In this document: piece by piece, positions 6,684 through 26,068 of the stretch
Position numbering within the stretch: the stretch's first letter is position 1
Layout of the letters: each line of letters opens with the position of its first letter
DNA from: Candidatus Eiseniibacteriota bacterium
GTDB taxonomy: Bacteria; Eisenbacteria; RBG-16-71-46
NCBI GenBank assembly: GCA_963707915.1
Contig: OY970178.1
Span: 3,136,001-3,200,000, forward strand
Length of the DNA: 64,000 nucleotides
Direction of reading: 5' to 3'
Notes under the pieces: generated by a model
Told to the model about the DNA's origin: nothing
What the model saw: the letters and a program-made list of their open reading frames with translations, nothing else
Database searches by the model: none
Translations under genes and position numbers: made by a program

Positions 6684-7130
6684 GCCTGAGAGAGCCAAGT
6701 CCATCCTCCTTGTCGGCACGACGATCACCTCGGAGTGAGTGGGGCGGAGCCGATCCACGGGCATCATAGCCCGCGACATCTGCGCGGATCGCGGGGAGCG
6801 AACCGATGGCCCGTCTTCCGGCACGAAACGCACGAATCGCGGCACGAGCGCGGGAGAAGAACTCTCCGGGCGCGAGTCCCCCGGGCGCATTCGCCGCAGG
6901 CGACGGCGGCGAATGCGGGATGGCGGGCGCCGGTGCGCGGTCCGGCGCCGCCCGGCACTGGAGCAGCCCGGTCGCGCCATTGTAGGCTCGGTCGCGTGCC
7001 GAAGGTGATCCGACGCGACTTCCCTCCGCGGGACGTCGCGTGGCGATGCGGCACACGACCGGGACCGACCCTTCCTCGAGCGTCCGCCGGATGGGCGGAG
7101 CGTCGGGGATCATGAAGCGGGAGGGGATGT

Positions 7131-8018: not shown

Positions 8019-8108
8019 GGCGCACGGGCCCCCGCGCGCCACGTTCGATCCCGGCCAGGGCGGCGCACACGGCCCGGCCGGTCTTGCCTGGGCCGCGGAG
8101 GACGGCGA

Positions 8109-8924: not shown

Positions 8925-9097
8925 GAGCCCCCCACGTCGATGTCGGTGTACGACATACCGCCGGGGAGCCGGGCGTACCCGCCTCCCCGGCCGAAGCGGA
9001 CCTCGACCGGGGCCGGCCGCGATGCGCGTGCCGCTTCCGTCGCTGCCGCGTCGTCGTCGTTCCAGTCTTCCGCGAGCACACCCCATTGTTGGCGGCA

Positions 9098-9116
9098 GGG
9101 TTGACGTTGTCAACCC
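9098..9116. promoter_or_regulatory. Palindrome GGGTTGAC-gtt-GTCAACCC, candidate operator between divergent genes
   Basis: 8-bp perfect inverted repeat containing TTGAC in an intergenic region. Confidence 0.35.
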
Positions 9117-9346
9117 GGAGTGTCCCCATTCCTCGGACCACCGGTCATGACAGGGGCTTCGGCGTGATGGGGTGGACCTCGGGCTTCATCGCCGCGCGGG
9201 GAACAGGTATCTTCGAAGCGCGGCGCCGCGACCGGGAAGACGCAGCTTCCGGCGCGCGCCGCCCGCATCTGGAACCGACGGGCGTCGCGCGGGATGATCA
9301 CCCGCGTCCCCCGGGGGCATCTGCATCATCTCGTCTGGAGGATGGT

Positions 9347-10872
9347 ATGCGAGCTCGGGTCGTCGCCCGGCTTCTCGCCCTGGCGCTGGTGGTGTCGTCG
9401 CCGTGCCCGGCGCAGGCGGGCACGGTGCGCATCGAGAGCGGGGGGATCGATAGGCGTCCCGAGCGGCCTGCCCGGCGTCCTCGTCTTCAGGGGGGTGCCC
9501 TATGCGCGGCCGCCGGTCGGGGCGCTCCGGTGGCAGCCGCCGCAGCCGCCGGCGGCGTGGAGCGGTGTGCGCAGGGCCGACGGCGTCGCTCCGTGCTGCC
9601 AGCAGGTGCCGTGGTCGGCGCCGCCCTGGACGGCGGAGTTCGTCACGCAGGAGCGGACGAGTGAGGACTGCCTCGACCTCAACCTCTGGACCGCGCAAGC
9701 CTCAGGCCGCACGAAGCGCCCGGTGCTCGTGTGGCTGCACGGCGGCGCGCTGACCGGAGGATCCGGCGCGGTGGCCGTGTACGACGGCGCCCAGCTCGCC
9801 CGTCGCGGCCTCGTGGTGGTGACCGTCAACTACCGGTTGGGCGCACTCGGCTTCCTCGCGCATCCCGGGCTGAGCGCGGAGTCCCCGCGGCACGTCTCCG
9901 GGAACTACGGGCTGCTCGATTGCATCGCCGCGCTGCAGTGGGTCCGGCGGAACATCGCGGCCTTCGGTGGCGACCCCGGGCGAGTGACGATCGCCGGGCA
10001 GTCTGCGGGCGCCGACCTGGTCAGCGCGCTGATGCGCTCGCCCCTGGCGACAGGGCTCTTCCACCGCGCCATCCTGATGAGCGGGGGCTCGTCCGACGGA
10101 TACCCTGCCGCTCGCCGAGGCCGAGCGGCAGGGCGCGGCGTGGGCGAGGACCTTCCAGGACAGCTCGCTCGCGGCGCTGCGCGCGCTGCCCGCCGCCGGA
10201 ACCATGGTCGGCGGGCGCTTCGGGCTCGTGGCGGACGGCTGGTGCCTTCCCGCGAACGGATCGACCGCTCCGGTGAGCGACGTGCCGATCCTCTTTGGCC
10301 TGACCGCGGACGAAGGCAGCAGTGACCCCACGTACGGCAAGGTCACGGCCGCGGAGTACGCGGCGTTCGCGCGCTCGCACCTGGACACGCTGGCGGACGA
10401 GGCGCTGCAGCTCTATCCGTTCTCCAACGACGAGCAGGCCGGGCTCGCGCAGAAGCAGAGCATGCGCGACCTCGGGCTCTTCCAGACCCTGCGCTGGGCG
10501 CGCGCGCGCGCCGCTCGGGACCACGCGCCACTGTACGCGTACTATTTCACGCGCGGCATCCCCTGGCCCGAGCATCCGGAGTTCGGCGCGTTCCACAGCT
10601 CCGACGTGCCCTATGCATTCGCGAACCTCCGGCTGCTGCAACGTCCCTGGCAGGAGGCCGATCGCCGCCTGTCCGAGACGCTCGCGGCGTACTGGGTCCG
10701 CTTCGCCCGGACGGGAGATCCGAATGGGCCGGGATTGCCGGAGTGGCCGGCGTTCGATCCCGGCGAGCCGCGGCTGCTGGAGCTGGGCGCGACCGTGGCC
10801 CCGCGCCCGATCCTCGAACCCCGGCGCGTGGAGTTCTACGAGAAGTGCCTGGCGCTTCCCCCGCGCGAGTAG
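9347..10872 (+). pseudogene. Type-B carboxylesterase split by two +1 frameshifts in G runs (or sequencing errors)
   Basis: Signal peptide in one frame, FRGVPYA/SEDCL/HGG/GQSAG in a second, GLTADEG and GAFHSSD in a third; removing one G at 9440-9445 and one at 10083-10087 restores a single ORF. Confidence 0.8.
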
Positions 10873-10943
10873 GCGCGCGCAGCCCGCCTCACGATCCGCC
10901 CGCTGGCCATGCTGCAGTCCGCGCGAAGCGTCGATGATGCCCG

Positions 10944-13919
10944 TCACTCCAGCAACGTCAACTTGCGCGTTCCGACCACACGGTCACCGAGCCGCATGCG
11001 CACGAAGTAGAGCCCCGCCGCGAGTCTCCGGCCGCTGGCGTCCGCCGGTCGCCAGGACGCCGACCATTCGCCGGCACTGCGCGCGCCCGGCTCCACCGAC
11101 GCCACCCGACGGCCAGCCATGTCGAGGACGTCGAACGCCACCTCGCCCTCGGCCCGCAACGCGTAGTCGATGCGCAGCGCGCCGCGGCCCGGGTTGGGCG
11201 AGATGCCGCCTAACGCGTCGCGGTCGGGACGTGGCGTGCCTTCCACGGTGACGGTTCCGCTCCGCAGTCCGACCTCGAAGATGCCTGCGCCCCCGTCGCG
11301 CACCACGACGACGCCGTACCAGCCGGTGACCGGCGCCGTGATCACCACGGACTGCTGACTCTCCACCAGCGCGCTCGCGCGACCCGTCCACAAGGGGCCG
11401 CCGGTGGGCGCGAAGACCAGCACCTTCGCATCGAGCCCGGGGCTGTGCGAGAACGTGAGGGTGTAGGTCTGGCCGGCGATCATGGGCGCATCCCAGCTCT
11501 CCACCAGGAAGTCGCTCGTTGTGGTGCGCACGTTGTCGGGCGCGTCGAGCGTCAGCTCCTGATGGCCTGGGAAGTACTCCACCAGTCCCGCATCGGCGCC
11601 GGTCCAGCGGATCGCGGAAGCGTAGTAGGTGGCGAACGAGTTGAAGTTGAAGTCGCCGACCACGACGTCCGCCTCGGGGTACATGGTCGAGTTCGCCAGC
11701 ATCCCGCTCAGGCACGTGCCGATCGCTCCACCTGTCGGCGACGAGTAGGCGTAGAGACTCCAGTCGCTGCTGCTCGTCAGTCCGGCCGCGGCGATCGCCG
11801 TCCAGTAGGGCAACGCCGGCGCGAACGAGACGAACGCCCTTGGCTCGGTCGGCACGATGAACGCCGGCCCCGGCGTGAGCGACACGATCGGCGGGCAGGT
11901 GCGCACCCTGATCGTGTAGGCGTCCGCCGCTCCGTTCTCGTTGACGACAACGACTCCATAGAATCCGCTGCTCGGCGCCGTGTACGTGTGGGCGCCCGCG
12001 CCGCTCTCGAACTCGGCCATCTGGCGGCCTGCCCAGTACTCGTAGCCGGTCTCGTTGCGGAACAGCATGAGCGTGAGGGAGGCGGCCGGACCGCTCGAGA
12101 GTTCGAACTCGTAGGCCTGCCCGGCCTCCAGGTACACGTCCCAGCAACCCACGACGTCGTCGGGTCCGGTGGTGCGCTGCGTGACGTTGTTGTCATTGGC
12201 GATGATCAGGTTCTCGCCGGAATCCCACTGCACGGCTGTCGACGACACGCTTTCGGCGCGGGGCTGCGCGGCGTTCAGATAGTAGGTGCCGGGCGTGTTG
12301 TAGTTGAAGTCGCCGACGACGACGGGTTGCCGCCCTGAGGGCACGCCATAGGACGTGGCAAAGGGCAGCGTGGTGCAGCTTGGCCACAGCGAACTGAGGT
12401 TGTCGCCGTTGAGGTTCAGCACCCATTCCGGGCTTTCGCCGCGCAATGCGGCGGCGGTCCAGTATCGGGCGGTCTGCGCGATCGAGAAGTACGCCGTCAT
12501 CACCATGCCGGTCGAGGCGGTAACGCCGGGCGAGAGCGCGGTCGGGAACGAGCAGTCGCCGAAGGTAACGCTGTAGTCGCCGGCAACCGCCGCATCGTTG
12601 ACGACCGCCACGCCGTACCATCCGCTCACCGGCGCGGTGTAGGTGGTCGGCCCCGCCCCGCCCCCTGGCGAGCTCAGGACGGCCGCGGACCTACCGGCAA
12701 AGTACGCGCCGCCGCCGCTGTTGGCGAACAACAGCAACGTCCGACCGATGGGGAGTGAGAGGATGAAGCGGTACGTGTGGCCGGCGTGCAAGTAGACGTC
12801 GTAGAAATCGGCGAGATCGCTGCCCGCCATGGACTCGAAATGCGGGAGGCTGTTGGTTTCGAGGATCCCCTGCGTACCGGTGAACTCGACTTCGCCCGCG
12901 GCCGCGCCGCTGAACAGGTGCGGGTAGACGAAGTACCAGCCCGCGGGTGAGAAGCTGAAGTCGCCCACCGTGAGGTCCACGCTGCCGGGGCCGAACCCCG
13001 AGGTGGCGAACAGCCCGTCGAAGCACGTCGGCGGACTGCCGCCGCTCGGCATGTCGTAGAGGCCGAGGTCCCAGTCTGCGGCCGAGGACCGGACCGCACA
13101 TCCCATCCAGAACGGGTCCCTCGCCTCGAAGGCCAGGTTCCCGTTCGGCAGAGCGACGACAACCGGCGTCTGCGCCGTGAGGGCCGAGGGGATCGGGCAG
13201 GTCGAAGCCGTGACGCCCAGCTTGTACGAGAGGGCGGTGCCGGCGTCGTTGGTGAGCACGAGGCCGTAGTAACCGGTCGTTGTCGGCGTGAAGGTCGTTG
13301 TGCCGGTGACGTCGAAGTGGGCTGCGCTGCGGCCGGCCCAGTAAGTGCCGCCCGTGATGTTGGCGAACAACATCAGGTGGGCCCCCGACCAGTTCGTGGG
13401 GAAGAAGTCGAACGTGTAGGTCGTGCCCGTGGACATGTAGACGTCCCAGACGCGGATCAGGTCGGATGTGGCCATCGATCCGGAGATCGCGGAGCCGTTG
13501 GGTACGATGACGTCGGGGCCGTCGTCCCACTGCACGGTCGCATTCCCTCCGGAGTATCGGGACACCGAGGGGTAGTAGGTGCCCGGCGCGTTGTGGTTGA
13601 AATCGCCGACGACGAAGTCCAGCACGCCGACTCCGGCGGTCGATGACGCCAGCAGGCCGGTGGGCGTGCAGGAAGGCTCTGGCGTGGTGCCCGAGTAGAG
13701 GAAGAGGTCCCAGTCCGCGCCCGGCTGCGGTCGCACCGCAACGGCAGTCCAGAAGGCCGAGGACTGCGCGAACTGACAGAGTGCCGGCGTGCTCGATACC
13801 GGCACCGCAGTGCCCGAGGTCAGCACTTGGGTCGGACATGCCGCACGCGCCGGGCCGGCGAGCGCGAGCGCAAGTACGACGGCGCTCGTCGTGTGGTGGA
13901 GAGCGATTCGGAGAGTCAT
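10944..13919 (-). CDS. 991-aa secreted protein with four tandem ~215-aa beta-rich repeats and a C-terminal FlgD-like Ig domain
   Basis: Signal peptide ending ARA; repeats share W(T/M)xxA, GDF, (W/Y)D, GR and G(Y/W/F)YG motifs; C-terminus SPNPGRG...DMAGRRV...LAAGLYFVRM. Confidence 0.85.
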   Translation of the reverse strand: MTLRIALHHTTSAVVLALALAGPARAACPTQVLTSGTAVPVSSTPALCQFAQSSAFWTAVAVRPQPGADWDLFLYSGTTPEPSCTPTGLLASSTAGVGVLDFVVGDFNHNAPGTYYPSVSRYSGGNATVQWDDGPDVIVPNGSAISGSMATSDLIRVWDVYMSTGTTYTFDFFPTNWSGAHLMLFANITGGTYWAGRSAAHFDVTGTTTFTPTTTGYYGLVLTNDAGTALSYKLGVTASTCPIPSALTAQTPVVVALPNGNLAFEARDPFWMGCAVRSSAADWDLGLYDMPSGGSPPTCFDGLFATSGFGPGSVDLTVGDFSFSPAGWYFVYPHLFSGAAAGEVEFTGTQGILETNSLPHFESMAGSDLADFYDVYLHAGHTYRFILSLPIGRTLLLFANSGGGAYFAGRSAAVLSSPGGGAGPTTYTAPVSGWYGVAVVNDAAVAGDYSVTFGDCSFPTALSPGVTASTGMVMTAYFSIAQTARYWTAAALRGESPEWVLNLNGDNLSSLWPSCTTLPFATSYGVPSGRQPVVVGDFNYNTPGTYYLNAAQPRAESVSSTAVQWDSGENLIIANDNNVTQRTTGPDDVVGCWDVYLEAGQAYEFELSSGPAASLTLMLFRNETGYEYWAGRQMAEFESGAGAHTYTAPSSGFYGVVVVNENGAADAYTIRVRTCPPIVSLTPGPAFIVPTEPRAFVSFAPALPYWTAIAAAGLTSSSDWSLYAYSSPTGGAIGTCLSGMLANSTMYPEADVVVGDFNFNSFATYYASAIRWTGADAGLVEYFPGHQELTLDAPDNVRTTTSDFLVESWDAPMIAGQTYTLTFSHSPGLDAKVLVFAPTGGPLWTGRASALVESQQSVVITAPVTGWYGVVVVRDGGAGIFEVGLRSGTVTVEGTPRPDRDALGGISPNPGRGALRIDYALRAEGEVAFDVLDMAGRRVASVEPGARSAGEWSASWRPADASGRRLAAGLYFVRMRLGDRVVGTRKLTLLE

Positions 13920-14536
13920 CGCGAGCCTCCCTTCGCGATGCGACGAAGCTCCGCCTGCTTCTCGAGCTGCGCGGGCGCCAGCGGCGTGGGCGCGGGGTTG
14001 AGGATCGCGCCGGCCGCCAGCCGGTTCTCCGATGCAGACGACGGCGCACTGCGCGCGTGCGCCCGCTTCTCGGTGATCGCCGCGGCCCGCTCCGCCCCCA
14101 GCTTCGGATCCAGCGGCCGTGACGTAACGAGCGGGCCGGGCCTGGTGCGTACGTCACCCGCGGGCGCAGCGCCCGCGGGCAGCCCGAGCATCGTGGCGCG
14201 ATTGCGCTGCTGCATCCTCAGCAGCGCGCCAGACTGCTTCTCGGCCTGCGAATTCTCCGTCGGCCGGTCGGGGCCCGGCGGGCGCGAGGTCGCGACCGGC
14301 GGGGCCTTCGCATCGCCGAGCGCGAACGCCGCTGCCGGCGCCGGAATCGCCGCGTGGATCGACTCCAGCTTGATGCGTTGAGCGGCCGTGGGCGTGGGCG
14401 ATAGCGAAGGCGGCAGTTCGGTGCGCACCTCGGCGGGCTTGCCGGTGGCGTCCGGCGAGGAGTCACCGGCGAGCGCCGGATCGGGTGAGGCGCACAACGC
14501 TACCGCGCTGGCGAGAACCAGGAGAGCGCATTTCAT
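13916..14536 (-). CDS. Secreted low-complexity hypothetical protein, coupled to the 991-aa gene
   Basis: GGAGGAG RBS; MKCALLVLASAVALCASPDPALA signal peptide; ATGA overlap at 13916-13919. Confidence 0.7.
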   Translation of the reverse strand: MKCALLVLASAVALCASPDPALAGDSSPDATGKPAEVRTELPPSLSPTPTAAQRIKLESIHAAIPAPAAAFALGDAKAPPVATSRPPGPDRPTENSQAEKQSGALLRMQQRNRATMLGLPAGAAPAGDVRTRPGPLVTSRPLDPKLGAERAAAITEKRAHARSAPSSASENRLAAGAILNPAPTPLAPAQLEKQAELRRIAKGGSR

Positions 14537-14585
14537 GGGAGACTCCTCCGCGTCGAGGTGAAGAATCGGCATGGGGCTACCGCTC

Positions 14586-14612
14586 AAACGACCCGAGGCC
14601 GCGCGAATCACA
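14586..14612 (-). promoter_or_regulatory. Candidate ECF promoter TGTGATTC-N14-CGTTT for the divergent secreted operon
   Basis: Minus strand TGTGATTCGCGCGGCCTCGGGTCGTTT; same boxes and spacing as 17826-17852. Confidence 0.6.
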
Positions 14613-14894
14613 CGGGAAGTGCGGGCGCGAGGGATCCCCGAGGCGGGGCGGACGGGCCGTGCCGGGGGCCACCGGGAACGAGCTTGCGTCGGGCGAAGGG
14701 CCCGGCTTTACTTGCGCTCACGACGAGGGGTCTGCGTCCGCAAATGACCCCGAGCGGGGCCGGGACGTTCCGCCGGAGCCCGCGCCGGCGAACTCCCGAG
14801 CCGCGGCTGGAGGGTGGGTGTCGAATCCCGAAGGTCAACTCCACTGGGTCGGCGGGGCGCCCGCGGGCGCCGCGCCCCGTTGATCGACTTTTCC

Positions 14895-17858
14895 GTGGCC
14901 GCCACCCGGGCGGGGCCGGTCCGGCTGGGGATGCTCCTCGCCGTGGTGTTGCTCGCGAGCGGCGCGGGTTCCACGCCGTCCGCGCCGGGGCGGGCCGCGG
15001 CGCCCGAGGTCGCCGGGCGCACGTCGCCGGGGGCTTCGGCCCCGGATCGCACTCCCGTCCAGCGCCGCACGCTCGCGCTCCTCGATTCGCTCTGGGCCGC
15101 GGGGAGGACCGATACGCTGTGGACGTGCGCGGAGGCCGCGTTGCGGACGGCCCGCGTCCGCGGCGACGCGAGGCTCACGCTCGATCTGCTGGCGACGCGC
15201 GGGCGGATGCGCGCGAGCCTCGGACTGATCGCGGAATCCGAGCCCGATCTACGAGCCGCCATCCGCATGGCGCGATCGGCCGGCGACGACTCGACGCTGC
15301 GGGCCAGCCTGCGATGGCTCGCCTATGCCCTGGATCGCGAGGGCAGGAACGACGAGGCGCTCCGCGCGTGGCAGCGTCTTCGCGCGCACTCGGAGCGGGC
15401 CGGCGACCTCGTGCACCAGGCGTGGGCCTGGTCGGGCATCGGCTTCCTGCGCTGGCAGTCGGGCGACCCCCGGGCCGCCGAGAGCGCCGACCTGCGGGCG
15501 CTGGGCCTCTTCCGCGCGGCGCACGACGAGCGCGGCGAGGCGTTCGTGCTGAACGCGCTGGGTGTGGTGGCGAACGCGCAGGGTGACTACCTCCGGGCCG
15601 ACCAGCGCTTCCGGCTCGCGGCCGCGAAGGCCGACCGTGCGCGGTGGACGTGGCTGGCGGCCGTTGCCTGGAACAACGTCGCGTCGCTCGAGCAATCGCT
15701 GGGCGATCCGGGGCGCGCCCGCACCCTGTACGTGAAGGCCGCCGAGTTGCATCGCCGCGCAGGTGACCTGGCGGAAGCCCTGGTGACGGGCGAGAACGTC
15801 GCGCGCTGCGACGCGGCGCTGGGCGCGTACGACGAGGCCGCCGCGGAGCTCGAGCTGCTCTTCCGGGAGTGTCGCGAGCACGGGATCGCACACCTGGAGG
15901 GCGGGCTTCGCAACGCGCTCGCCGACGTGCGCACCCGCCAGGGTCGCCCGCACGCGGCCGCCCGTCTCTATCGGGCGAACCTCGAGCGTGGAGCCTCGAT
16001 CACGGCGGATGCGCATCAGGAAGCGGTGCTCGGACTCGCCCGCACGCTTGCCGCCGTGGACAGCGTGCCGGCTGGCCTGGCGCTGATGCGCCGGGAGTCG
16101 AGCTGGATTCGCACGGCGGCGGACGCGATCGGTCGCGCCGAATGCGACGAGGAGCTGGGCGACTTGCTGCTGCGAGCAGGTCGCCCGCAGGAGGCGCTGC
16201 GGGTCCTGCTCTCCGCGGCCGCCGAAGCTCGCCGGCTGGGGGTCGGTGCGCCCCGCATCCGGGCTCTGGCCGGGGCCGCCCGGGCCGCGGAGCGTCTCGG
16301 CATGCGCGATCGCGCGCTGGCGCTGCTCCGCGAGGCACTCGGCGTGTGGGAAGTGGAGCGGGGCCTGCCCGCCGATCCCGAGTGGCGTGAGGTGCGTGGT
16401 GTCGTTGCCGCGGACGTGGTTGCGAGCCTGGGAAGGCTGCTGCTCGTGCTCCCGCCCGACGCCTCCCCTGCCGAGCGCGCCCGGCACGCATTCGACGCGG
16501 TGCAGGCGTTCAAGGCGCGCACGTTGATGGAGCGCATGCTCGGCCCCGCGCGCGGCGACACGTCGTCACCCGCGGCGATCCCGACCACCTGCACGGAGCT
16601 ACAGCGTCGGGTGCTTCGCCCCGGGGAGCTGATGCTCGACTTCTACCTCGGGGCGGATTCCGGGCTGGTGTTCGTCGTGAGTCGCGAGGAGTGTCGCGCC
16701 TACCGCATTCCGCCGCGGCGCGAACTCGAGTCGGTGCTCGCGCCGTACTCGCGAGCCGTCGCCGCGGCCGACGGGAGTGCGGAGCCCGCGAGGGGGCGCG
16801 ACGCCGGTCTGGCGCTCGCACATCGCAGCGTGCGCGAGTTGCTGCTCGGGCCGGCGCTCGATCGCATCGCGCGGAGCCGCAGCCTGATCGTGGTTCCCGA
16901 CGGCATCCTCGATCGCCTAAGCTTCGCCGCGCTGCTCGACGACCCTTCGCCGGACCCGGCGGCGCGTCGGCTCGCGCTGCAGACCGTGCCGTCCGCGTCG
17001 ATCCTCGCCCGACTGCGAGCGACGCTGGCCGACCGCCCGGCGTGGGTGCGTGACGGGCCGTCGATCCTCGCTCTCGCCGGCGGCAGGGACGCGAGCGGCA
17101 ACCGACTCTCCGGCGCGCTGGGCGAAGTCCGGGACCTCGCCTCCGACTTCCGCCGCGTCTCCCTCGCGCTGCCCGGGACGCCGTCGCCCCCGCGGGCGGG
17201 TCCGGTGGACTCGATCCGCGCGGCGGAACTCCGCGGGACGGCGCTGCTCGAGCGCGCGGCGGGTTACGATGTGCTCCACTTCGCGGCGCACACCACGATC
17301 GACGAGCAACGTCCCTGGCGATCCTCGCTCCGCCTCGGCGACGAGACCGACCCGGGGCGGCTACTGCGCCTGACCGGCTCGGCCATCGCGCGATCGACGC
17401 TCTCCGCGCGGCTGGTCGTCCTGTCGACCTGTCGTTCTGCCGACGGCCGGTTGCTGCCGGGGGAAGGCGTGCAGGGGCCGGCGGCGGCGTTCCTGGTCGC
17501 TGGGGTTCCGGCCGTGGTCGCGGCGCTGTGGCCGGTGCAGGACGCCGATGCCCGCTGGATGATGCGACGCCTCTACCTCCACCTGGCGGAGGGTGCGACC
17601 GTGGGCGAAGCGCTGTCGCTGGCCCAGTCGGACGCGCGCAGGACCGCCGAGCGATTCCGTTCGGCGCGCTGGGCGGGCTATGTCGTCGTCGGCGACGGCG
17701 ACTTGCGGATTCCGATTCGACGCAGGACGCTTGCGGAACGCTTCGGGCTCCCGGCCGCGCTCCTGCTGTTCGGATGCGCGGCGGTCCTCGGCTGGCTTCT
17801 CCGGCCACCTGACATCAAGAGGGAATGTGATTCCCGCGAACCGTCGGCGTTTCCATGA
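14895..17858 (+). CDS. TPR-CHAT (caspase-like) protease with putative signal peptide and C-terminal TM anchor
   Basis: TPR-like helical repeats; CHAT motifs IVVPDGILDRLSF, VLHFAAH (His), LVVLSTC (Cys), AGVPAVVAALWPV, WAGY; start uncertain (14814-14931). Confidence 0.9.
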   Translation: MAATRAGPVRLGMLLAVVLLASGAGSTPSAPGRAAAPEVAGRTSPGASAPDRTPVQRRTLALLDSLWAAGRTDTLWTCAEAALRTARVRGDARLTLDLLATRGRMRASLGLIAESEPDLRAAIRMARSAGDDSTLRASLRWLAYALDREGRNDEALRAWQRLRAHSERAGDLVHQAWAWSGIGFLRWQSGDPRAAESADLRALGLFRAAHDERGEAFVLNALGVVANAQGDYLRADQRFRLAAAKADRARWTWLAAVAWNNVASLEQSLGDPGRARTLYVKAAELHRRAGDLAEALVTGENVARCDAALGAYDEAAAELELLFRECREHGIAHLEGGLRNALADVRTRQGRPHAAARLYRANLERGASITADAHQEAVLGLARTLAAVDSVPAGLALMRRESSWIRTAADAIGRAECDEELGDLLLRAGRPQEALRVLLSAAAEARRLGVGAPRIRALAGAARAAERLGMRDRALALLREALGVWEVERGLPADPEWREVRGVVAADVVASLGRLLLVLPPDASPAERARHAFDAVQAFKARTLMERMLGPARGDTSSPAAIPTTCTELQRRVLRPGELMLDFYLGADSGLVFVVSREECRAYRIPPRRELESVLAPYSRAVAAADGSAEPARGRDAGLALAHRSVRELLLGPALDRIARSRSLIVVPDGILDRLSFAALLDDPSPDPAARRLALQTVPSASILARLRATLADRPAWVRDGPSILALAGGRDASGNRLSGALGEVRDLASDFRRVSLALPGTPSPPRAGPVDSIRAAELRGTALLERAAGYDVLHFAAHTTIDEQRPWRSSLRLGDETDPGRLLRLTGSAIARSTLSARLVVLSTCRSADGRLLPGEGVQGPAAAFLVAGVPAVVAALWPVQDADARWMMRRLYLHLAEGATVGEALSLAQSDARRTAERFRSARWAGYVVVGDGDLRIPIRRRTLAERFGLPAALLLFGCAAVLGWLLRPPDIKRECDSREPSAFP
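17826..17852 (+). promoter_or_regulatory. Candidate autoregulatory ECF promoter directly upstream of the sigma gene
   Basis: TGTGATTCCCGCGAACCGTCGGCGTTT ends 2 nt before ATGATG (17855), compatible with a leaderless transcript. Confidence 0.6.
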
Positions 17859-18463
17859 TGAAGCCGGACGCTGAGGATCCCCGAAGCGACGAGGATCTGG
17901 CGCTCCTGGCCGCGGGCTGCCCGGATAGTCCGGCCGGGAGGAAGGCGGCGTGCACGGTTCTCGAACGCTACGCACGGGTCGTCTACCGCTGGTGCTATTC
18001 CTACGTCGGCAACGTCGAACAGGCCGAGGATCTCGCGCAGGACGTGCTGCTACGCGCCTACCGTCACCTCGGGGACTTCGAGGGATGGGGACGATTCTCG
18101 GCCTGGCTCTTCGTGATCACGCGCAACCTCTGCCTGGACGCGGTGCGGCGCGACGCGCGTCGGAAGCGCGAGGAGATCGAGTTGGATCGGCTCGCCGACC
18201 CCGCTCCGGGGCCGGAGGCCGAGTTGGCCGCGCGCCGGGAAGAGGAGCGCACGTTGTCGCTGATTCGAGAGCATCTGTCGGAGCAGGAGCAGGACGCGCT
18301 CTGGCTCCGCTGCTTCGAACGCATGCCCCTCGACGCCATCACCCGTGTGCTCGGTATCACGCAACGCAGTGGAGCGCGCGCGGTGCTCCAGAACGCCCGG
18401 CGCAAGCTCCGCGCGGCGTTGGGCGATGCGCATCCGCTGGCCCGGGAGGGGGACGATGACTGA
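17855..18463 (+). CDS. ECF RNA polymerase sigma-70 factor
   Basis: Region 2 AEDLAQDVLLRAY...FSAWLFVITRNLCLD; region 4 LSEQEQ...ARRKLR. Confidence 0.93.
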   Translation: MMKPDAEDPRSDEDLALLAAGCPDSPAGRKAACTVLERYARVVYRWCYSYVGNVEQAEDLAQDVLLRAYRHLGDFEGWGRFSAWLFVITRNLCLDAVRRDARRKREEIELDRLADPAPGPEAELAARREEERTLSLIREHLSEQEQDALWLRCFERMPLDAITRVLGITQRSGARAVLQNARRKLRAALGDAHPLAREGDDD

Positions 18464-19277
18464 ACGATGCCCGACGCTGCGCGAGCTCCTCGCGCTGGTG
18501 GACCGCGTGCCCGGTGGCGACGCCGCCCACGGCGTGAGCGGCGCCCCGAGCCAGCCGCCGCCGATCCCCACCGACGCGGGCGCCTCCAACCCGCCGCTCC
18601 CGGATGACACCTGGGCGCACGTCCGCAGTTGTCCGCGGTGCCGGAGTCTGCTGGCGGCCTACCACGAGTTCGAGTCGCCGCAGGTCCGAGATCGCTGCGA
18701 GGGCGAGCCCGAGGCAGTGGCGCGCCTGGGCGCATTCCTCGAGTCGATGATCGTCGGGCCCGGCGCCGCCCCGACCGTGGCCGCGATCCCCGGGGCCCGA
18801 CGGCTTGCGGGTGGCAGGGCGGGGGAAGCCACGCGGGTCGGGGAGATCTTCCGTCTACTCACCGGGTCCGGCCGCCTGGTTCCCGTGGCCGGCGCGGCAG
18901 CCATCGTCGCGGCGGTGTTCCTGTTGGTGCGCGGGAACGTGGATACGGCTCTGCGCTCCACCGTGCTTCGCGAGCAGCCGGCCGAATCCGCAGTCGGCAG
19001 TATCGTCGTCTTCCCACCGCGCCCGGTTGCGGGACGCGGGCTCGAGTTGCGCTGGAGGCGCGGGGGACCCGACGACACCTACCGGGTCCGCCTGCTCGAT
19101 TCCGGGATGCGCGAGGTCGGGTGTGTGGAGGCGGGACGTGAGACGCTTCTGGTACTCGCCACGTCGGCGCTTACCGGCCCGCGCCTCCCGGTCTTCTGGC
19201 AGGTGGAAGCGCTGCGCGAGGGCGATCGCGTCGGCGATTCTCCTCCCGGCGAGCTGCCTCTGCTGCGTGGGCGGTAG
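18456..19277 (+). CDS. Putative zinc-binding anti-sigma factor (HxxxCxxC, one TM, C-terminal beta domain)
   Basis: Overlaps sigma stop; HVRSCPRC motif; TM VPVAGAAAIVAAVFLLV; C-terminal LRWR...YRVRL...FWQVEA. Confidence 0.75.
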   Translation: MTERCPTLRELLALVDRVPGGDAAHGVSGAPSQPPPIPTDAGASNPPLPDDTWAHVRSCPRCRSLLAAYHEFESPQVRDRCEGEPEAVARLGAFLESMIVGPGAAPTVAAIPGARRLAGGRAGEATRVGEIFRLLTGSGRLVPVAGAAAIVAAVFLLVRGNVDTALRSTVLREQPAESAVGSIVVFPPRPVAGRGLELRWRRGGPDDTYRVRLLDSGMREVGCVEAGRETLLVLATSALTGPRLPVFWQVEALREGDRVGDSPPGELPLLRGR

Positions 19278-19379
19278 CTCGAGTGGCGCGAGTCCCGCCG
19301 CCCCCCCTCGACCGAGCCGCCGGAGCCGTAGCCGGCGCGCGGCGCTCTGGGTGGCGTGGTTCAGCGGGGACTGAGAACT

Positions 19380-19564
19380 TGGTGCGCCGCCTAGGACTTG
19401 AACCTAGAACCTACTGATCAAGAGACTCTGATCGCCGCCAGCACGCAGCGGTTGTCGCGCAACGCACTGCGAAGAACGGCAAGAAGTTGGCCCGGGAACG
19501 AACGGGCATCTGCGGGCATCCTCGGGCACTTGAAGGGGCACGAAACGGGGAAGGTTTCCCCGCT
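19380..19564 (-). repeat. att-like direct repeat copy 1: 45-bp tRNA-Lys 3' half plus 140-bp arm
   Basis: 19380-19424 matches tRNA 25993-26037 with 1 mismatch; the full 185 bp matches 23855-24039 with 9 mismatches by manual count. Confidence 0.92.
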
Positions 19565-19685
19565 CGGATGGAATGGGGATCGCCATGTTCGCCTCGGCGT
19601 GCCCGGGTGGCGTTTCCGCAGAAATTCATGAAATGCAGTGGACATGCCACTGGATTTCTCTGCCCGCCTGGGCTAGCCTTCGGGC

Positions 19686-20855
19686 ATGTTCCGGCGCTTC
19701 CTCGACCTCCCCGCCCTTGCTGCCGAGCGGAGTTTCTTCCTGCTCGGGCCTCGCCAGACGGGCAAGTCCACGCTGTTGCGGGCCTCCTTTCCGGATGCGC
19801 TGTTTCTCGACTTGCTGGACGCGCAGACGTTCCGCTCGTTGGCGGTGGCCCCGAACCTGATCGGTGAGCGCGCGCGAGCATTGAAGGGGCGTCACCGCGT
19901 TGTCATCGTCGATGAGATCCAGAAGTTGCCCGAGCTGCTTGACGAGATTCACCGGCTCATGGAACTCGACAAGTCCCTGCGCTTCATCCTCACCGGGAGC
20001 AGCACGAGGAAGCTCCGCACTCGCGGGCGAAACCTGCTCGGTGGCAGAGCCGGGCTGGTGCGGATGCATCCGATCGCATACCCGGAGCTGGGGACTGCCA
20101 GCCGACCTCATTCCTGGGCGGACATGCTTCGATGGGGCGGGCTTCCCTCGGTGCTCGGTTCGAAGACGTCGAAGGACGATCTCCAGGCCTACGTGGGCCT
20201 CTATCTCCAGGAGGAGATCAGGGCCGAGGGGTTGGCGCGCTCCGTTCCGAACTTCAGTCGGTTCCTCGAGACCGCGGCCGCCATGAACGGCGAGACCCTG
20301 AACTACACGAAACTGGGCAACGATGCACAGCTCTCACCGCGGACCGTGCGGGACTACTTCCAGATCCTGCAGGACACGTTGGTGGGCGATCTGCTTCCTC
20401 CCTTCCAGCACACCCGCACGCGCAAGGCCGTTGCCACGGAGAAGTTCTACTTCTTCGACATCGGGATGACGAACGCTCTCGTCGAGCGTTGGGCCGTTTC
20501 GCCGCGCACGCCGGAATACGGTCGTCTGCTCGAGCACCTGGTCGAGCGCGAGATCAGGGCCTCGATGGACTACCTCAGAAACGACCGTCATCTGTTCTTC
20601 TGGCGCACGCTGTCGCGGCTGGAAGTCGACTTCGTCGTCGCGGAAGGGCAGAAGCCCGTGGTGGCGATCGAGGTGAAGGCTTCGCGGTCGGTCTCCCAGC
20701 AGGACCTCAAAGGCCTCCGGGCGTTCGCCGAAGACTGGCCGCGGGTTCGCAAGGTCGTGGTGTCGCTGGAGCCCCACCTACGCACGACGGAGGATGGCGT
20801 GGAGATCGTGCCGGTGGAGGAGTTCCTGGCTCGGCTCTGGGGTAAGGCGATTTGA
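19686..20855 (+). CDS. AAA+ ATP-binding protein with DUF4143 (nuclease-like) C-terminus
   Basis: Walker A GPRQTGKST, IVDEIQK, LTGSS, LLGGRA, KFYFFDIG, EVDFV...IEVK. Confidence 0.9.
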   Translation: MFRRFLDLPALAAERSFFLLGPRQTGKSTLLRASFPDALFLDLLDAQTFRSLAVAPNLIGERARALKGRHRVVIVDEIQKLPELLDEIHRLMELDKSLRFILTGSSTRKLRTRGRNLLGGRAGLVRMHPIAYPELGTASRPHSWADMLRWGGLPSVLGSKTSKDDLQAYVGLYLQEEIRAEGLARSVPNFSRFLETAAAMNGETLNYTKLGNDAQLSPRTVRDYFQILQDTLVGDLLPPFQHTRTRKAVATEKFYFFDIGMTNALVERWAVSPRTPEYGRLLEHLVEREIRASMDYLRNDRHLFFWRTLSRLEVDFVVAEGQKPVVAIEVKASRSVSQQDLKGLRAFAEDWPRVRKVVVSLEPHLRTTEDGVEIVPVEEFLARLWGKAI

Positions 20856-20961
20856 TGGTCTGCTGCCAGATTTCGGTCCAGCGTGGCGGGATGCCGACTA
20901 CAAGTGCATCAGCGTCGGGGGCAGGTCAGGCAGTAGTCCCCAGCTCATCTCGGAGGCCGCC

Positions 20962-21861
20962 ATGGGTATTGTGACGAAGCACAAATCACGACGTATACCT
21001 GCCAAGCTTCGAATATCATGCCTGCCACTCCTGACCTGGCTGATCGTTCTGGGTGCAGGGCTCCTGGTCACGGGCTCCACGGCCCGGGCCGCGGTCTGGG
21101 ACTTGCCCCGTCGGCCCCTGGCTGACGACGAGAAGCTCGCCCTCACGGTGAGCCAATCGGACGCGATTGTCATCGCCTGCATCCGGCAGGTGAGGGACAG
21201 CACGATCGAGCTGCGGTCCGACCCTGAGTCCGGCTCCACCGATCACGTTTCCTATGTCGACGTGGCGCTCGTCCCACTGCAGTGGCTCAAGGGCGATCCC
21301 GAACCCGGCGACCTGCACGTCGGGATGTTCCCGACGATGGACAGGGTGCTGGACGAAGTGCAGCGACGCCTCCGGGAAGGATCACTCACCGCGATGTTCT
21401 TCCTGCGGCGCTCTCCTCGGGGCTGGATGATCTCCGATGACCCGAACGGCTTCCGGACGGGAAGCCTGCTGGTTCTCGACCAGCCGACGAGCGCCACTCA
21501 TGACATCGCCGCGGTGCGGGCGGCCGTCGCCCGGCAGAGCCTCGACTCGCTCCTCGTCCGGGCGGATCTCGTTGTCGTCGGCCATCCGGACCTCACGTCG
21601 TCGCGGGTGCACGTGGACAGCGTCGTCGTGGGCGAGTCGCCGGGCGTCTCAATCCGCGTGGACAGCCCCGTCTGGGGCGTGGTCCAGCCCGGTCGGTCGG
21701 TTCTCTTCCTGCGTCGGCTGGCGCCAGACAGGTTCGAGACGCTCGACTTCTTCGCCGGCAGCGTGCCGATGAAGTCGGACTCCCTCGAGCGTCAGGGAAT
21801 CCCGCTCCAACGGCTCTTCGAGCGCGCCGCAGAGTTGCGCCGGGGTGCGGGACCGAGATGA
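20962..21861 (+). CDS. Secreted hypothetical protein with two similar beta domains
   Basis: GGAGG RBS; signal peptide ending ARA; SDAIVIA/ADLVVVG and FFLRR/LFLRR internal duplication. Confidence 0.65.
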   Translation: MGIVTKHKSRRIPAKLRISCLPLLTWLIVLGAGLLVTGSTARAAVWDLPRRPLADDEKLALTVSQSDAIVIACIRQVRDSTIELRSDPESGSTDHVSYVDVALVPLQWLKGDPEPGDLHVGMFPTMDRVLDEVQRRLREGSLTAMFFLRRSPRGWMISDDPNGFRTGSLLVLDQPTSATHDIAAVRAAVARQSLDSLLVRADLVVVGHPDLTSSRVHVDSVVVGESPGVSIRVDSPVWGVVQPGRSVLFLRRLAPDRFETLDFFAGSVPMKSDSLERQGIPLQRLFERAAELRRGAGPR

Positions 21862-23114
21862 GTGCGCCCATGAACTCCCGGAGCAGGTGCGTCTTGCTGC
21901 TCGGAATGGTCCCGTCCATGCTCCCGACCGCGGTCGCGGCCGGGACGATGGACTGAGAGGGCCCCTACGTCTGTGCTCCCTGGTACTGCTACGAGTATAA
22001 CGGGCGATACTGGTACAAACACTGGTACGGCGGTTCGTCGGAATACGTGTACGTATCCGGCTCGACGACCGGTGTCACCACCGCGGCGCTGTCAAGTGCC
22101 GCCTCGCCCGCGGTCTCGCAGTGGACCACCCGGACATACGGACTTCCCCGTCTGACGTTCTACCAGAGCACCATCGAGACGTACTCGTACGTCAAGTTCG
22201 TCTCCGACCAGACCTGGCTTGCCGCCGGGCTGAGTCCCACTGGGCGGGCGGTCACGTTCTGGGTCGAGAACGGCAATGGGACCATCGCCCATTGCCGTAT
22301 CTGGCTGCGGATTCGATCGGCTGACCAACCGGGATGGTGCGCCGATTGCAATGCGCCGGGCGCTGATTGCATCACGCCGCCCCTCAAGTACGACCTGCCA
22401 TCGATTTTGGCGCACGAGTTCGGTCACTGGTGGGTCGTAGGTGACACCTACGACCTGACCTGCGGCGAGAACATGGATCTCATGTACTGGATTGCATCGC
22501 CGGGGATCGTGAACCGCGTTCCATCATCCGAGGACGTGGCGAGCGCGCAATCACTCTACGATCAGCCTGTCGACGTGCTGGCCTCGGTCTCTCGCAGCGA
22601 TGCCACGCCGGAGAACGTCACGCTCGTCTGGTCGCTCGGGGCGGGCGTGAGTTCGGTGGTTGTCGAGCGCTGTGTGCCGGGCGCGGGATGGTCCTCGCTC
22701 GGGACGGCGAGCATCGACGGCACCGGATTCGCGAGCTATGTCGATGCGAACGTCGTGCCTGGCACCCGCTACGGATACCGGCTCCTGCTCTCGACTGGCG
22801 GCGGCGATGTGGTGGCCGGCGAGACCTGGGTGGATGTCCCGCGGTGGGAATTGACGCTCGGAGCGGTCACGCCCAACCCCTCGTGCGACGGCCTTCTGCG
22901 CCTGCACTACGTGCTCGGGGACGCGGCGCCGGCGTCGCTAGACGTGATGGACGTCGGCGGCCGATTGGCGCGGCACGTCGATGTCGGTGCCGCCGGTAGG
23001 GGGGCTCACACGGTCTGTCTGGGGGACGGCGCCCCGTTCGCCGCCGGGCTCTACTGGGTGCGCCTGAGGCAAGGCACGCGCATCCGGACGACGCGCGCCA
23101 TCGTCGTGCGATGA
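21858..23114 (+). pseudogene. Secreted metzincin-like metalloprotease with FlgD-like CTD, interrupted by in-frame TGA at 21954-21956
   Basis: ATG 21858 overlaps upstream stop; 32-aa signal-like leader, TGA, then the same frame continues to LAHEFGHWW, Met-turn-like DLMY and TPNP...AAGLYWVRL. Confidence 0.7.
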
Positions 23115-23148
23115 CCTAGGTTCTGTCCGAGCCTCCCCGGGACAATCG

Positions 23149-23177
23149 AGCCCCGGCGATCGGCGATCGCCGGGGCT
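23149..23177. terminator. Perfect 14-bp inverted repeat, probable terminator
   Basis: AGCCCCGGCGATCG-G-CGATCGCCGGGGCT about 35 bp after the protease stop. Confidence 0.55.
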
Positions 23178-23285
23178 TATCGTTCGGGGGGCTCAGCCCA
23201 GCGACGGGGGCTCGGCCACCGCCTGCGCAATGGCCGCGGCGTCTGCCTGTTCCCCGAAGTCCAGCCGCCGTGCTTCGCGGTCAGC

Positions 23286-23588
23286 GTGGAGAATGCGCCG
23301 CTCGTGGGCGCGGCCGAGCTGCGGCTGCCTGGCGCCAACCCGCGCATGGGCAGCGTCCGTTTCGGCTATCGCACGCCGCAGGTGGGACGCATCGAGGCGA
23401 GCATCCACGACATCGTGGGCCGCAAGCCGGCCCGCCCGGTGTCGGCCTGGCAGCCGGCCGGCGAGCAACTGGGCGGCTGGGATGCCTGCGACGATCGCGG
23501 CGAACGCGTTCATGCGGGCGTCTGCTTCCTGAGCGTGACCCTCGACAGCCAGCCCGTGGGCGGGAAGAAGCTCCTGATCGTGCGGTAG
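23286..23588 (+). pseudogene. Orphan, degenerate FlgD-like C-terminal domain fragment
   Basis: ANP...IHDIVGR...WDACDDRGERVHAGVCFL...KKLLIVR; no signal peptide or N-terminal domain. Confidence 0.6.
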
Positions 23589-23854
23589 CGGGGGCAGCGC
23601 GCCGGGTCGCAAATCCAGGCGGCCAGGAGCGGCGACGTTCCGCGAGAGGTTCTGAAGTTCGACGCCCAAAGACCCGACGGCGTCTTCTGCTTGCCCGGGT
23701 GCGCCTGCGCGCCGCCCCCGACCGATGACTTGGCCGCTCCCTTTGTCGGCGATGACCTCGCCAAACACGAAGCCCCGCGCCGCGTGCAGTATCGCGCACA
23801 AGCGCAGGGCGAAGGGCGGAGCGGGGAAGGTGCTCCGAGCAGCCAGAGGGAAGA

Positions 23855-24039
23855 TGGTGCGCCGCCTAGGACTTGAACCTAGAACCTACTGATTAAGAGA
23901 CTCTGACCGCCGCCAGCACGAAGCGATTGTCGCGCAACGTATTGCGAAGAACGGCAAGAAGTTGGCCCGGGAACAAACGGGCATCCGCGGGCATCCTCGG
24001 GCATTTGAAGGGGCACGAAACGGGGAAGGTTTCCCCGCT
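23855..24039 (-). repeat. att-like direct repeat copy 2: 45-bp tRNA-Lys 3' half plus 140-bp arm
   Basis: 23855-23899 is identical to tRNA 25993-26037; arm nearly identical to copy 1. Confidence 0.92.
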
Positions 24040-24317
24040 GGCTCATGACTGCACCCTCCGTGCGGTCCTGTCCCCGGGGTCCGGAGTCATGTCCCTGTGC
24101 CGGCGCGGCATCCCACACGCTAGTGATCGACCCGAGGTCGCCCTCGCGGGCGCCTCCGTTCCCTCAATCGTGGTCTGTCGGCCGGGTCGGATCTCCCATC
24201 TAGTGCACGCGGTCGCGAGAAGCGCCTCCAACGCACAATCGGAATCTCGGACCCAGCCGACATCTTGCGCCGTCACCGTCGCCAGGAACATCCCAAGAAC
24301 CCGGCGACGTGATCGTA

Positions 24318-24824
24318 CTATCGCACCAAGACCACCCCGGTGTTGGCCGTGGCCGAGCCAAGTCGGAATCTCACGACGTACTTCCCAGCAGGCATCACCG
24401 CCCCAGTCTCGCTGACTCCTGACCAGTAGTAGTCGACGCGCCCATCAACCACCGGCAGCGATCGCGAGTAGGCGCGGCGTCCGGCCGCATCGAAGACATC
24501 GACGGTTGCCAATCCCGAGCGCGCGATCGCGGCCCGCTGGTCAAGCGTGGGGTAGGTGTCGCCGCTATGCGTCAGCAGCGCCAAGTAGCCACCGATGAGG
24601 AGGACGTTCGCGATCTGGCCAGCCGTCTGCCGGGTGACGACCTTTTCCTGTGTTCCCCCGACGCCGATGTTGCCGGGATCGGTTCCGCCGTGGCCCGGGT
24701 CAATCCAGACGTCGATCTGTGCCTCGGCTCGTAGCGACCAGAGAGCTCCACTGAGCAGCAGCAGGGACGAAGACAGCGCCAGCGAGGAGAAAGACCGGAA
24801 CAGACTGCGAGAAGAGTGGATCAT
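24318..24824 (-). pseudogene. N-acetylmuramoyl-L-alanine amidase N-half fused to a partial FlgD-like CTD (probable internal deletion)
   Basis: Signal peptide, VWIDPGHGG..DPG, EK, TLDQRAAIA, then directly VDVFDAAGRR...MPAGKYVVRF; the SxHxN motif and catalytic Glu region are absent. Confidence 0.7.
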
Positions 24825-25687
24825 GACGCCCTCCCAGCCTTGGTGCCGCGTCTTGGCACCAACTCGATCACCTTCTGCCACGAGGCGTCCTCGCCGTTGC
24901 CGGAAGGCACCTCGAACAGCAGACGAGTGCGGTCAATCCAATGCGGCTCACGTTCGGCCTCAGGCGTGTCGGTCAAGCGGCACTTGCCGCCGCGCCGATC
25001 GAAGAGCCACAGATCGGCCGCGGCGACTTCCTCGTATTGATTGACGGACGTTGGCTTGGACACCACAAGTAGCCGGGAATCGGGGGACCAGCTGAAGTCG
25101 TAGTCGGCGTGAATCGAGAGCGTGTCAACGACGCGAACCTGTCCCGACGGAATGGAGACGAGCACAAGTACGCACGTCGGTCGTCCGTAGAGGACGCCTG
25201 CCACAGCGAGCGTCCGCGAATCCGGGGCCCAGCGGAACCTGGATACGAGCGCACCGAACTCAGGCCGAAGGGTGCGCCGAGATGCGACGTCGACGACGCA
25301 GAGCAGCCAGGGGCGCTGTCTCGACTCCCAGGTCGTGCACGCGATCCACTTGCCGTCGGGAGACCACCGTGGCTGGGATAGCGACCGTTCAAGCAGCGGC
25401 CGGGATGAACCTGTCGCTGAATCCTCGAGGAAGATGTGGGGGTGATGCTGCGCGTCGCTCTTGACGACGGCTTGAAGTGAACCGGGGCCTGGCGCTACCC
25501 GCGCATCATCGAGTTCGCGGAGCAGCCGATGGGTGGAGACGAAGGGGCGATCGGCGGAGGTCGCGGGCCTTCTCGTCTGCACCCTCCAATCGCACGCGCC
25601 GAGCGGCGACGCCGGGCCGGTGGCCTTGGTGGCCGCCGCCAAGAGCAGCAGGCCAGCGCTCACGATTCCTACGAAGTATCGGGCCAT
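24821..25687 (-). CDS. Secreted TolB-like (PD40) beta-propeller protein
   Basis: Signal peptide; PRWSPDGKWIA, WAPDS, WSPDS and LTDTPEAEREPHW; ATGA overlap with amidase gene. Confidence 0.8.
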   Translation of the reverse strand: MARYFVGIVSAGLLLLAAATKATGPASPLGACDWRVQTRRPATSADRPFVSTHRLLRELDDARVAPGPGSLQAVVKSDAQHHPHIFLEDSATGSSRPLLERSLSQPRWSPDGKWIACTTWESRQRPWLLCVVDVASRRTLRPEFGALVSRFRWAPDSRTLAVAGVLYGRPTCVLVLVSIPSGQVRVVDTLSIHADYDFSWSPDSRLLVVSKPTSVNQYEEVAAADLWLFDRRGGKCRLTDTPEAEREPHWIDRTRLLFEVPSGNGEDASWQKVIELVPRRGTKAGRAS

Positions 25688-25951
25688 GTTCGCCTCGCTG
25701 TCCCTCATTGCGTATTCCGGCCATCGCGAACGCTCATCGGAGCGAAGCGACGCGGGTCAGGTTGTGCCTCGCGCCTCCGTGCCTCAGGTCTGCTGCATCT
25801 TAGCGCCTCCTCGTTCTGCGCGGGTGGTCTTCCTGATGCGGGGCGGGTCATGGCGGACAGCCGGAGTGATCTGCGACCCATCGGGCCAGGGGCAGCCGTG
25901 AGCCCACGCAGGCCGTCCGCCCGTGTCACCGCGGACGGGCCGGAAACGCGA

Positions 25952-25976
25952 AGGGCCCGACCGTGGGCCGGGTCCT
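25952..25976 (-). terminator. Hairpin downstream of tRNA-Lys
   Basis: Minus strand AGGACCCGGCC-CAC-GGTCGGGCCCT, imperfect stem just 3' of the CCA end. Confidence 0.45.
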
Positions 25977-25992
25977 CGGGAGTTCGAGAAGT

Positions 25993-26068
25993 TGGTGCGC
26001 CGCCTAGGACTTGAACCTAGAACCTACTGATTAAGAGTCAGTTGCTCTACCAATTGAGCTAGCGGCGC
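25993..26068 (-). tRNA. tRNA-Lys (anticodon CTT)
   Basis: 76 nt GCGCCGCTAGCTCAATTGGTAGAGCAACTGACTCTTAATCAGTAGGTTCTAGGTTCAAGTCCTAGGCGGCGCACCA; cloverleaf, TTC loop, encoded CCA. Confidence 0.97.

Follow-up and report, generated by a model that had tools for sequence, protein, structure and literature searches.

Positions 19380-26068 of the stretch analysed here (the window; 64,000 bp, positions 3,136,001 to 3,200,000 of contig OY970178.1, assembly GCA_963707915.1, Candidatus Eiseniibacteriota bacterium) contain an intact tRNA-Lys(CTT) gene and, behind it, two blocks of cargo, B next to the tRNA and A beyond it, each closed by a 185-bp end in which the 3' half of the same tRNA recurs. The region is interpreted, with a probability of roughly 0.7, as a tandem array of decayed integrative elements that was built by repeated site-specific insertion at tRNA-Lys(CTT), with units resembling cis-mobilisable elements (CIMEs). 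That the units are eroded islands is concluded from the intact integrase genes found behind the same tRNA in relatives, the integrase tail in block A, the different points at which such tails are cut and the in-frame deletion in block B.

Target tRNA gene and displaced ends

The target gene, identified by tRNA scan, repeat comparison and Rfam search, lies at 25993-26068 on the minus strand. It is the only tRNA gene of the window and forms the left attachment site (attL) of the array. An internal copy of its 3' half (23855-23899, minus strand), a hybrid att site, is identical at 45 of 45 positions. The distal copy (19380-19424, minus strand) is identical at 44 of 45, and its single change, at 19419, affects anticodon-loop position 37, within the stretch where crossover presumably takes place. 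Three tRNA 3' ends were thus found, against 0.01 expected by chance. Each half makes up the first 45 bases of a 185-bp end and corresponds to tRNA positions 32-76; the match stops exactly at position 32. Judged from where identity ends, the 7-bp anticodon loop (26031-26037) is the likely crossover region.

Between the two ends (19380-19564 and 23855-24039) there are exactly 9 differences over the 185 positions; the 140-bp arm accounts for 8 of them and the tRNA half for 1. Blocks A and B have no sequence in common. The direct comparison agrees on all these points with an earlier sequence-only reading of the window, which had described two nearly identical ends, starting at the anticodon loop, behind an intact tRNA and around unrelated cargo. 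That reading had also treated the 185 bp as the shared end of each block. The sequence is real, but it is a composite: the logic of crossover assigns the 140-bp arm to the block on its tRNA side and the 45-bp half to whatever follows. The G+C content per kilobase is 0.64-0.70 in the blocks and 0.74-0.76 in the kilobases to the right of the tRNA.

The right attachment arm and its family

In each 185-bp end, the 140 bp beside the tRNA half form the right-hand arm of the attachment site of an integrative element that uses tRNA-Lys(CTT). The right (P-type) arm of unit B (23900-24039, minus strand) carries a GGGGAA/TTCCCC inverted pair, TGCCC repeats with a 10-bp period and two CAA-N4-TTG boxes; that of unit A (19425-19564, minus strand) was recognised by arm comparison. 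The same blocks are conserved over 37 full-length arms, with the inverted pair at the outer end. By analogy with the anatomy of lambda-type attP sites, they may represent integrase arm sites, excisionase sites and IHF-like sites.

The 3.62-Mb genome, a single contig, holds two copies of the arm, both in the window. An arm-containing match (E<=1e-15) is present in 19 of 89 family genomes, the window's own counted; one of the 19, G004, holds little beyond the tRNA half. A search of metagenome contigs with a 23-base arm motif listed 68 stretches. When the 60 distinct contexts were inspected by eye, a tRNA-Lys 3' half came next in 46 and a tRNA-Arg-type half in 3 (L089, L100 and L143, a possible change of target); six had no half or a broken one, and five were chance matches in genes. 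No match to the arm was found in viral contigs, phages or plasmids. As single-stranded DNA the arm folds no better than shuffled sequences (z -0.5), it matches no Rfam family (nothing but the tRNA scored above threshold), and a scan for promoters and terminators gave nothing above chance. In a tree of the arms none of the 17 inner branches was starred and no branching order was obtained. Insertion sequences lie in or beside the tRNA half or arm in L095 (2476-2752), L205 (4705-5907) and L126 (1595-1900).

At least two other arm types occur on the same tRNA. Integrase-free units with matched arms of a second or third type are seen in L041 (2591-4113), L040 and L116; therefore at least three integrase families use tRNA-Lys(CTT).

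The two units of the window

The interior of block A spans about 19565-23854. Its 110 bp nearest the tRNA align with the left ends of intact elements. A single left arm-type site (CCTTCCCCGCT) lies at 23820-23830 on the minus strand, where intact elements carry two such repeats, and is followed by the 3'-terminal 24 codons of the cognate tyrosine integrase gene (23745-23816, plus strand). Of the 24 residues encoded, 18 agree with P0005, and a search of the whole genome recovers the tail at E 0.003. The left motif variant, TTCCCCG, matches the one in the unit's right arm. Unit A therefore has both of its ends, though the left one is reduced to a single arm site and the distal crossover region is changed. 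The sequence-only reading had called the units integrase-free, which stands insofar as the 64-kb window holds no whole integrase gene and fails insofar as the start of block A retains the 3' tail of an integrase gene together with an arm-type site.

In the interior of block B (24040-25992), a left stub with a pair of hairpins, in which no integrase arm was recognised, is followed by two genes, both on the minus strand. The one farther from the tRNA (24318-24824) encodes an Amidase_3-FlgD protein with an in-frame internal deletion near 24522, leaving 168 aa here as against 683 aa in P0034. This whole amidase is 97-99% identical on both sides of the deletion, by which 515 of 683 codons were lost. 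Contigs of the public sequencing runs X1-X3 are about 99% identical to block B, have 1,543 extra bases at 24522-24523 relative to the window and barely cover its flanks. X1-X3 and a further run, X5, are four runs from at most three samples of two studies, available as contigs only, none of which spans the stretch; no single public run covers half of it, and parts left uncovered are not taken as evidence. Block A keeps its left arm and an integrase tail, and block B its right arm only, with an internal deletion.

Parent element and integrase

In G004 the DNA directly behind the tRNA translates to an integrase tail, which led to the 337-aa tyrosine integrases P0002, P0003 and P0009. An intact integrase gene with its 3' end against tRNA-Lys(CTT) is present in L154, L155, L184, L185 and L186, and two direct repeats of the right-arm motif separate it from the tRNA in these loci. 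Genes for an HTH_17 excisionase-like protein, a PF13814 (Replic_Relax) relaxase and an ATPase whose coupling-protein matches are weak and below cut-off come before the integrase gene in L185; by its predicted gene layout this element is an integrative mobilisable element (IME). The arm motif co-varies between both ends of the elements (GTCCCG versus TTCCCCG). The integrase is paired with the right arm on the basis of the shared target, the shared motif and unit A. The sequence-only reading, which had offered eroded larger islands as one of two explanations and had proposed to look for an integrase next to a matching arm, is borne out in that relatives do carry the integrase at the same tRNA; no contig links it to its own right arm. 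Evidence from relatives that the blocks are remnants of integrase-bearing islands had been named there as speaking against independent cassettes, and such evidence was found.

The integrase family is rare, with 4 of 206 genomes positive (E<=1e-85); an arm-containing match occurs in 19 of 89 family genomes versus an integrase in 3 of 88. Against TIGR02249, the integron integrase model, the family scores 46-49 bits, the cut-off being 265, and the query found one weak match in viral sequences. Across the class (L154-L183), related integrases of 320-340 aa target tRNA 5' halves, namely those of tRNA-Ser, -Cys, -Arg(CCT) and -Lys(TTT), and each has its own paired arm repeat.

No cognate integrase was found in the genome of the window (94.8% complete), in which seven PF00589 matches were examined. 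Two of them were set aside as XerC/D-like, since they score high and are paired in every relative. The rest, at tRNA-Ser, tRNA-Glu or elsewhere, are at most 40% identical to P0002/P0003 over the full length and have different arm repeats.

Arrays in relatives and exchange between hosts

Forty-five units in 24 arrays were delimited by hand, most of the arrays having been found via the right arm. The units measure 913-14,694 bp (median 2,415), and none of these hand-picked 45 holds a whole integrase gene. A right arm of some type is present in 36, a left arm in 15, both in 13 and matched arms in 11. Integrase tails in related units end about 75, 110, 150, 190, 320 and 420 bp from att, lengths that differ as would be expected from independent deletions. 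Units are multi-gene and of mixed orientation, with up to six genes each in relatives, where codon-bias gene calling misses genes of low G+C content (almost none were called in L200 and L201). In other sources as many as five such ends stand on one contig (L118, L149), and a contig of 85,062 bp (L091) has three arms. The same cargo genes recur beside different neighbours and in merged multi-gene units. Six loci picked by their tRNA alone (L257-L262) showed no further tRNA half within the 3-17 kb read.

Differences at four-fold sites between the window and G005/L149 amount to 0.26-0.33 in flanking genes and 0.05-0.07 in the shared carboxylesterase cargo. Arm B is 95.7% identical to the arm of G005, 95.0% to that of L118 and 94.3% to arm A. 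This divergence suggests that integrase-free units moved between hosts recently, and some traffic of units, driven by a helper or by recombination, is likely. To that extent the idea of cassettes served by an integrase in trans holds; their loading by such an integrase was not borne out.

Proposed history of the array

Target, parent, remnants and recent exchange can be read in the sequences; the recombination steps are reconstructed as follows. Recombination of each element would have taken place in the anticodon loop (7 bp); the 3' half that the element brought along would have completed the tRNA again, and earlier insertions would have been displaced outwards, so that A would have come first and B later. 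Loading one after another at the anticodon loop, as the sequence-only reading had suggested, is supported in this respect. Deletions would then have removed the integrase and the mobilisation backbone at the end near the tRNA, leaving cargo beside the right arm. Stripped units may move when an intact element of the family passes, either by co-excision or by excision between neighbouring att sites, and homologous recombination between the repeated ends may help to reshuffle units among related hosts. In this genome the units are probably inert, because searches of it gave no cognate integrase and the crossover region of the distal site is changed.

Several observations weigh against decay as the whole account. 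Right arms survive far more often than left ones (36 against 15 among the 45 units); the excess is partly one of ascertainment, yet it holds inside arrays too. Unit B has no recognised left arm and hence is no textbook CIME. No single contig runs from an intact integrase to its own right arm, and in G170 the integrase contig has no arm match, the arms being on another contig. An intact integrase of the TTCCCCG subtype was not found, P0005 being a C-terminal half only. Over 25 arms, private changes number 0.29 per conserved site and 0.48 per variable site, a weak and not significant trend to spare conserved sites (p 0.076). The tRNA half has 0.49 per site. This pattern fits decay better than maintained function, and a weak constraint may exist. 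Finally, an IS91-type gene lies inside about 13 arms of several lineages, which is not explained by decay alone.

One of these genes, in L128, encodes a Zn_Tnp_IS91 plus Y2_Tnp transposase; it starts about 120 bp inside the arm, points into the unit and is split in two frames, hence below NCBIfam cut-offs. Traces of such genes (start, upstream motif or downstream end) accompany about 13 of 83 arm matches, against a background of about 1%; the 83 are the matches with 300 bp of interior and include repeats and weak matches. Seventeen were positive initially, from which three chance matches in the DUF4143 gene and a doubtful one were dropped; L125 duplicates L124. Such traces are seen at arms in G005, G024, G045, G204 and metagenome loci. 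The transposase stop codon is followed in L149, L124, L088, L216 and L218 by a common downstream end (GTTCCTAT), which we take to be oriIS from its position and its likeness to IS91-family ends. In G005 cargo adjoins this oriIS-like end at a point 33 bp inside the arm, and in P0005 twelve transposase residues are joined to the C-half of the integrase.

These findings speak for gene capture of the kind proposed for CR2-sul2 and ISCR elements, in which a rolling-circle IS91 transposase fused just inside the right arm would copy itself, the arm, the tRNA half and a variable length of downstream DNA into a circle, to be inserted at the tRNA by a helper integrase or RecA. Units would arise small, the right end always the same and the left ends variable, and those of the window would be later products that had lost the transposase. 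Pieces of a downstream chromosomal gene behind att in L149 and, at 25 bp only, in the window fit such copying, and the same layout is experimentally mobile in GIsul2, according to the account given in PMC9376610. One-ended transposition of IS91 is likewise described in the pertinent passages of PMC13181058 and PMC3575428. Units A and B of the window, however, show no trace of transposase or oriIS, and a tblastn search with the L128 transposase found nothing in the genome. Most arms are without a transposase and most copies beside arms are broken; class-wide, 2 of 30 transposase loci have an arm, many of these loci being short; and the breakpoints of the integrase tails have, by eye, no obvious common terminator motif. 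Gene capture is therefore considered an unlikely origin of the array, if the foremost of the alternatives.

A bolder form of the same idea, held to be slightly more doubtful still, makes the arm and tRNA-Lys half a portable module fused to an IS91/ISCR-type transposase, which would capture genes nearby in small circles, to be loaded at the tRNA by a rare helper integrase into an integron-like, reshufflable but attC-independent array. The two units of the window would be late products of it.

The decay of inserted elements must also be weighed against shuffling by RecA, in which the units are inert as att substrates and arrays grow mainly by recombination between the 185-bp repeats or shared cargo of incoming DNA and the chromosome. 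The recurrence of cargo beside different neighbours and in merged units would suit this, as would the left and right arm types that are mismatched in places, the tRNA halves, which mostly carry the host's own T-arm variant, and the rarity of the integrase. The boundaries tell otherwise: most copies are bounded at the anticodon loop, 57 of them with its exact 7-mer, and blocks resembling protein sites are kept over 37 arms. Growth mainly by this route is improbable. An assembly artefact or local duplication of one end is very improbable: although no public run contains half of the stretch and its order lacks read support, 9 of the 185 positions distinguish the two copies, arm B has closer counterparts in other genomes than in arm A, which argues against local duplication, and the genome is one contig, with several such ends on single contigs elsewhere.

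Cargo genes and neighbouring DNA

The four open reading frames (ORFs) of block A are all on the plus strand. Next to the integrase tail is a 100-aa ORF (23286-23588), by eye like a C-terminal sorting-domain fragment and without Pfam or NCBIfam match. A secreted-looking protein with a HEXXH-like motif (21858-23114) matches no family and has one in-frame TGA at codon 33, probably a nonsense change; selenocysteine is less likely (a tRNA-Sec is present in the genome). The ORF and family searches gave a protein of about 298 aa without family at 20962-21861, and an AAA_14 plus DUF4143 ATPase gene occupies 19686-20855 (best PADLOC model PDC-S01, E 4e-63). The DUF4143 gene and arm were found without the rest of block A in L127, L138 and a 1.5-kb contig of X5. 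The second gene of block B (24821-25687, minus strand) encodes, by profile search, a TolB/PD40-like beta-propeller protein.

Between the array and a conserved nuoN-like gene, which ends at 3479 and whose copy in G005 has a weak PF00361 match, lies older variable DNA (3480-19379). Some of its genes, such as those for carboxylesterase, RibD_C and DUF6144, are found in att-bounded units of G005, L118, L149 and L130, and neither att nor arm was found in it; the arms are therefore concluded to have been lost too. The carboxylesterase gene (9294-10872) is split in two frames and is whole (493-509 aa) in G005, L118, L149 and G045. An ECF sigma factor, a putative anti-sigma factor, a TPR-CHAT protein and a 991-aa repeat protein with a FlgD-Ig tail are encoded at 10944-19277, beyond the distal att. 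Just past that att, a 25-bp piece at 19331-19353 matches the 3' end of the nuoN-like gene; in L149 about 230 bp of the end of this gene stand behind an internal att. Elsewhere in the window, at 40281-40772, a coding repeat of 36-45 bp is present in five to six copies, spaced at multiples of 57 bp.

Decayed arrays or scars are located at six other tRNAs of the genome (tRNA-Cys, -Leu, -Glu, -Arg, -Lys(TTT) and -Ser). The tRNA-Cys array (G000:C1 153194-179433) has three 27-bp 3' fragments, two of them preceded by related arms, and metal-resistance-like cargo without integrase. An element at tRNA-Ser(CGA) (G000:C1 3337935-3386539) carries an intact related integrase, a HerA-like ATPase, an MT-A70 methyltransferase and two displaced 5' tRNA halves.

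Comparison with known systems

Known systems are compared here as they are presented in the relevant passages of the cited papers. CIMEs of 1.2-13 kb with tandem accretion are reported from Streptococcus thermophilus/salivarius and from tRNA-Lys(CTT) arrays of S. agalactiae; this tRNA is a known hot spot, with 215 CIMEs in 303 S. agalactiae genomes as cited (PMC5704250, PMC7563491). As in CIMEs, the units derive by deletion from an IME or an integrative and conjugative element (unit A has its tail and left arm, unit B its right arm and the deletion in its cargo), lack functional integrase, mobilisation and transfer genes, keep cargo and are stacked at one target gene. The parent, with its tyrosine integrase and PF13814 relaxase, matches a described IME superfamily. 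Unlike CIMEs, they belong to another phylum and integrase clade and stand beside no functional tandem element; unit B has no recognisable left arm, right arms are kept more often and some arms contain an IS91-type gene. The array works like a CIME array in which both att sites are only partly retained.

In GIsul2/CR2-sul2, two att sites enclose a unit that has no integrase of its own; an IS91-related gene starts about 120 bp inside one att site, the tyrosine integrase of the island moves the unit, and tandem insertions are reported (PMC9376610). The relatives share its layout, in that an IS91-family gene lies just inside about 13 related arms; its target is guaA, its cargo drug resistance and its mobility demonstrated, and both window units are without such a gene. 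Of the 31 Dehalococcoides ssrA islands, 15 are without an integration module and have been proposed to be cis-mobilisable (PMC3146451). They too are tandem islands bounded by repeats of the target gene, with older cargo past the last repeat, but have a serine integrase, a tmRNA target, a 20-bp repeat and larger units. In the tycheposons and tRNA-seeded islands of Prochlorococcus, newcomers likewise push old elements outwards, integrase fragments and partial tRNAs are left and cargo is distal (10.1101/2020.12.28.424599); tycheposons have their own integrase and replication genes, and the window units have neither. Islander tDNA islands of site A share the tRNA, the displaced 3' fragment from the anticodon loop and a tyrosine integrase; because Islander accepts only units with an integrase, it would filter out arrays of this kind (PMC4383910). 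The window has the intact tRNA and the displaced fragment, and 24 integrase codons are left inside the island.

Integrons and ISCR1-linked complex class 1 integrons resemble the array in having unrelated cargo split by a repeated element, ISCR1 with the order repeat, transposase, cargo, repeat (PMC3575428). The array is not an integron: it has no intI, attI or attC fold, and its units are multi-gene and of mixed orientation instead of single-gene cassettes in one orientation. In view of these features, of the failure to find a cognate integrase in the genome and of the pattern of private changes given above, the integron-like cassettes of the sequence-only reading are not upheld.

A literature search, with supplements and subscription papers outside its scope, found no description of such mobile elements in Eisenbacteria and nothing that combines IS91, tyrosine recombinase, tRNA, rolling circle and integrative element. 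Island decay and accretion in tRNA arrays are already described; new here is the example in an uncultured bacterial group.

Significance

The array is a clear case of island decay and accretion in which the parent integrase, the target and both arms are identified. Integrase-free units outnumber their parents, and island finders that demand an integrase would miss them. If the link between the IS91-type gene and the arm is functional, the gene capture of CR2-sul2, known from resistance islands, would extend to a tRNA-anchored environmental system. If arm and tRNA half do form a portable module, the CR2-sul2 principle would be at work more generally, on the chromosomes of environmental bacteria, as a means of acquiring genes for secreted enzymes and for defence.

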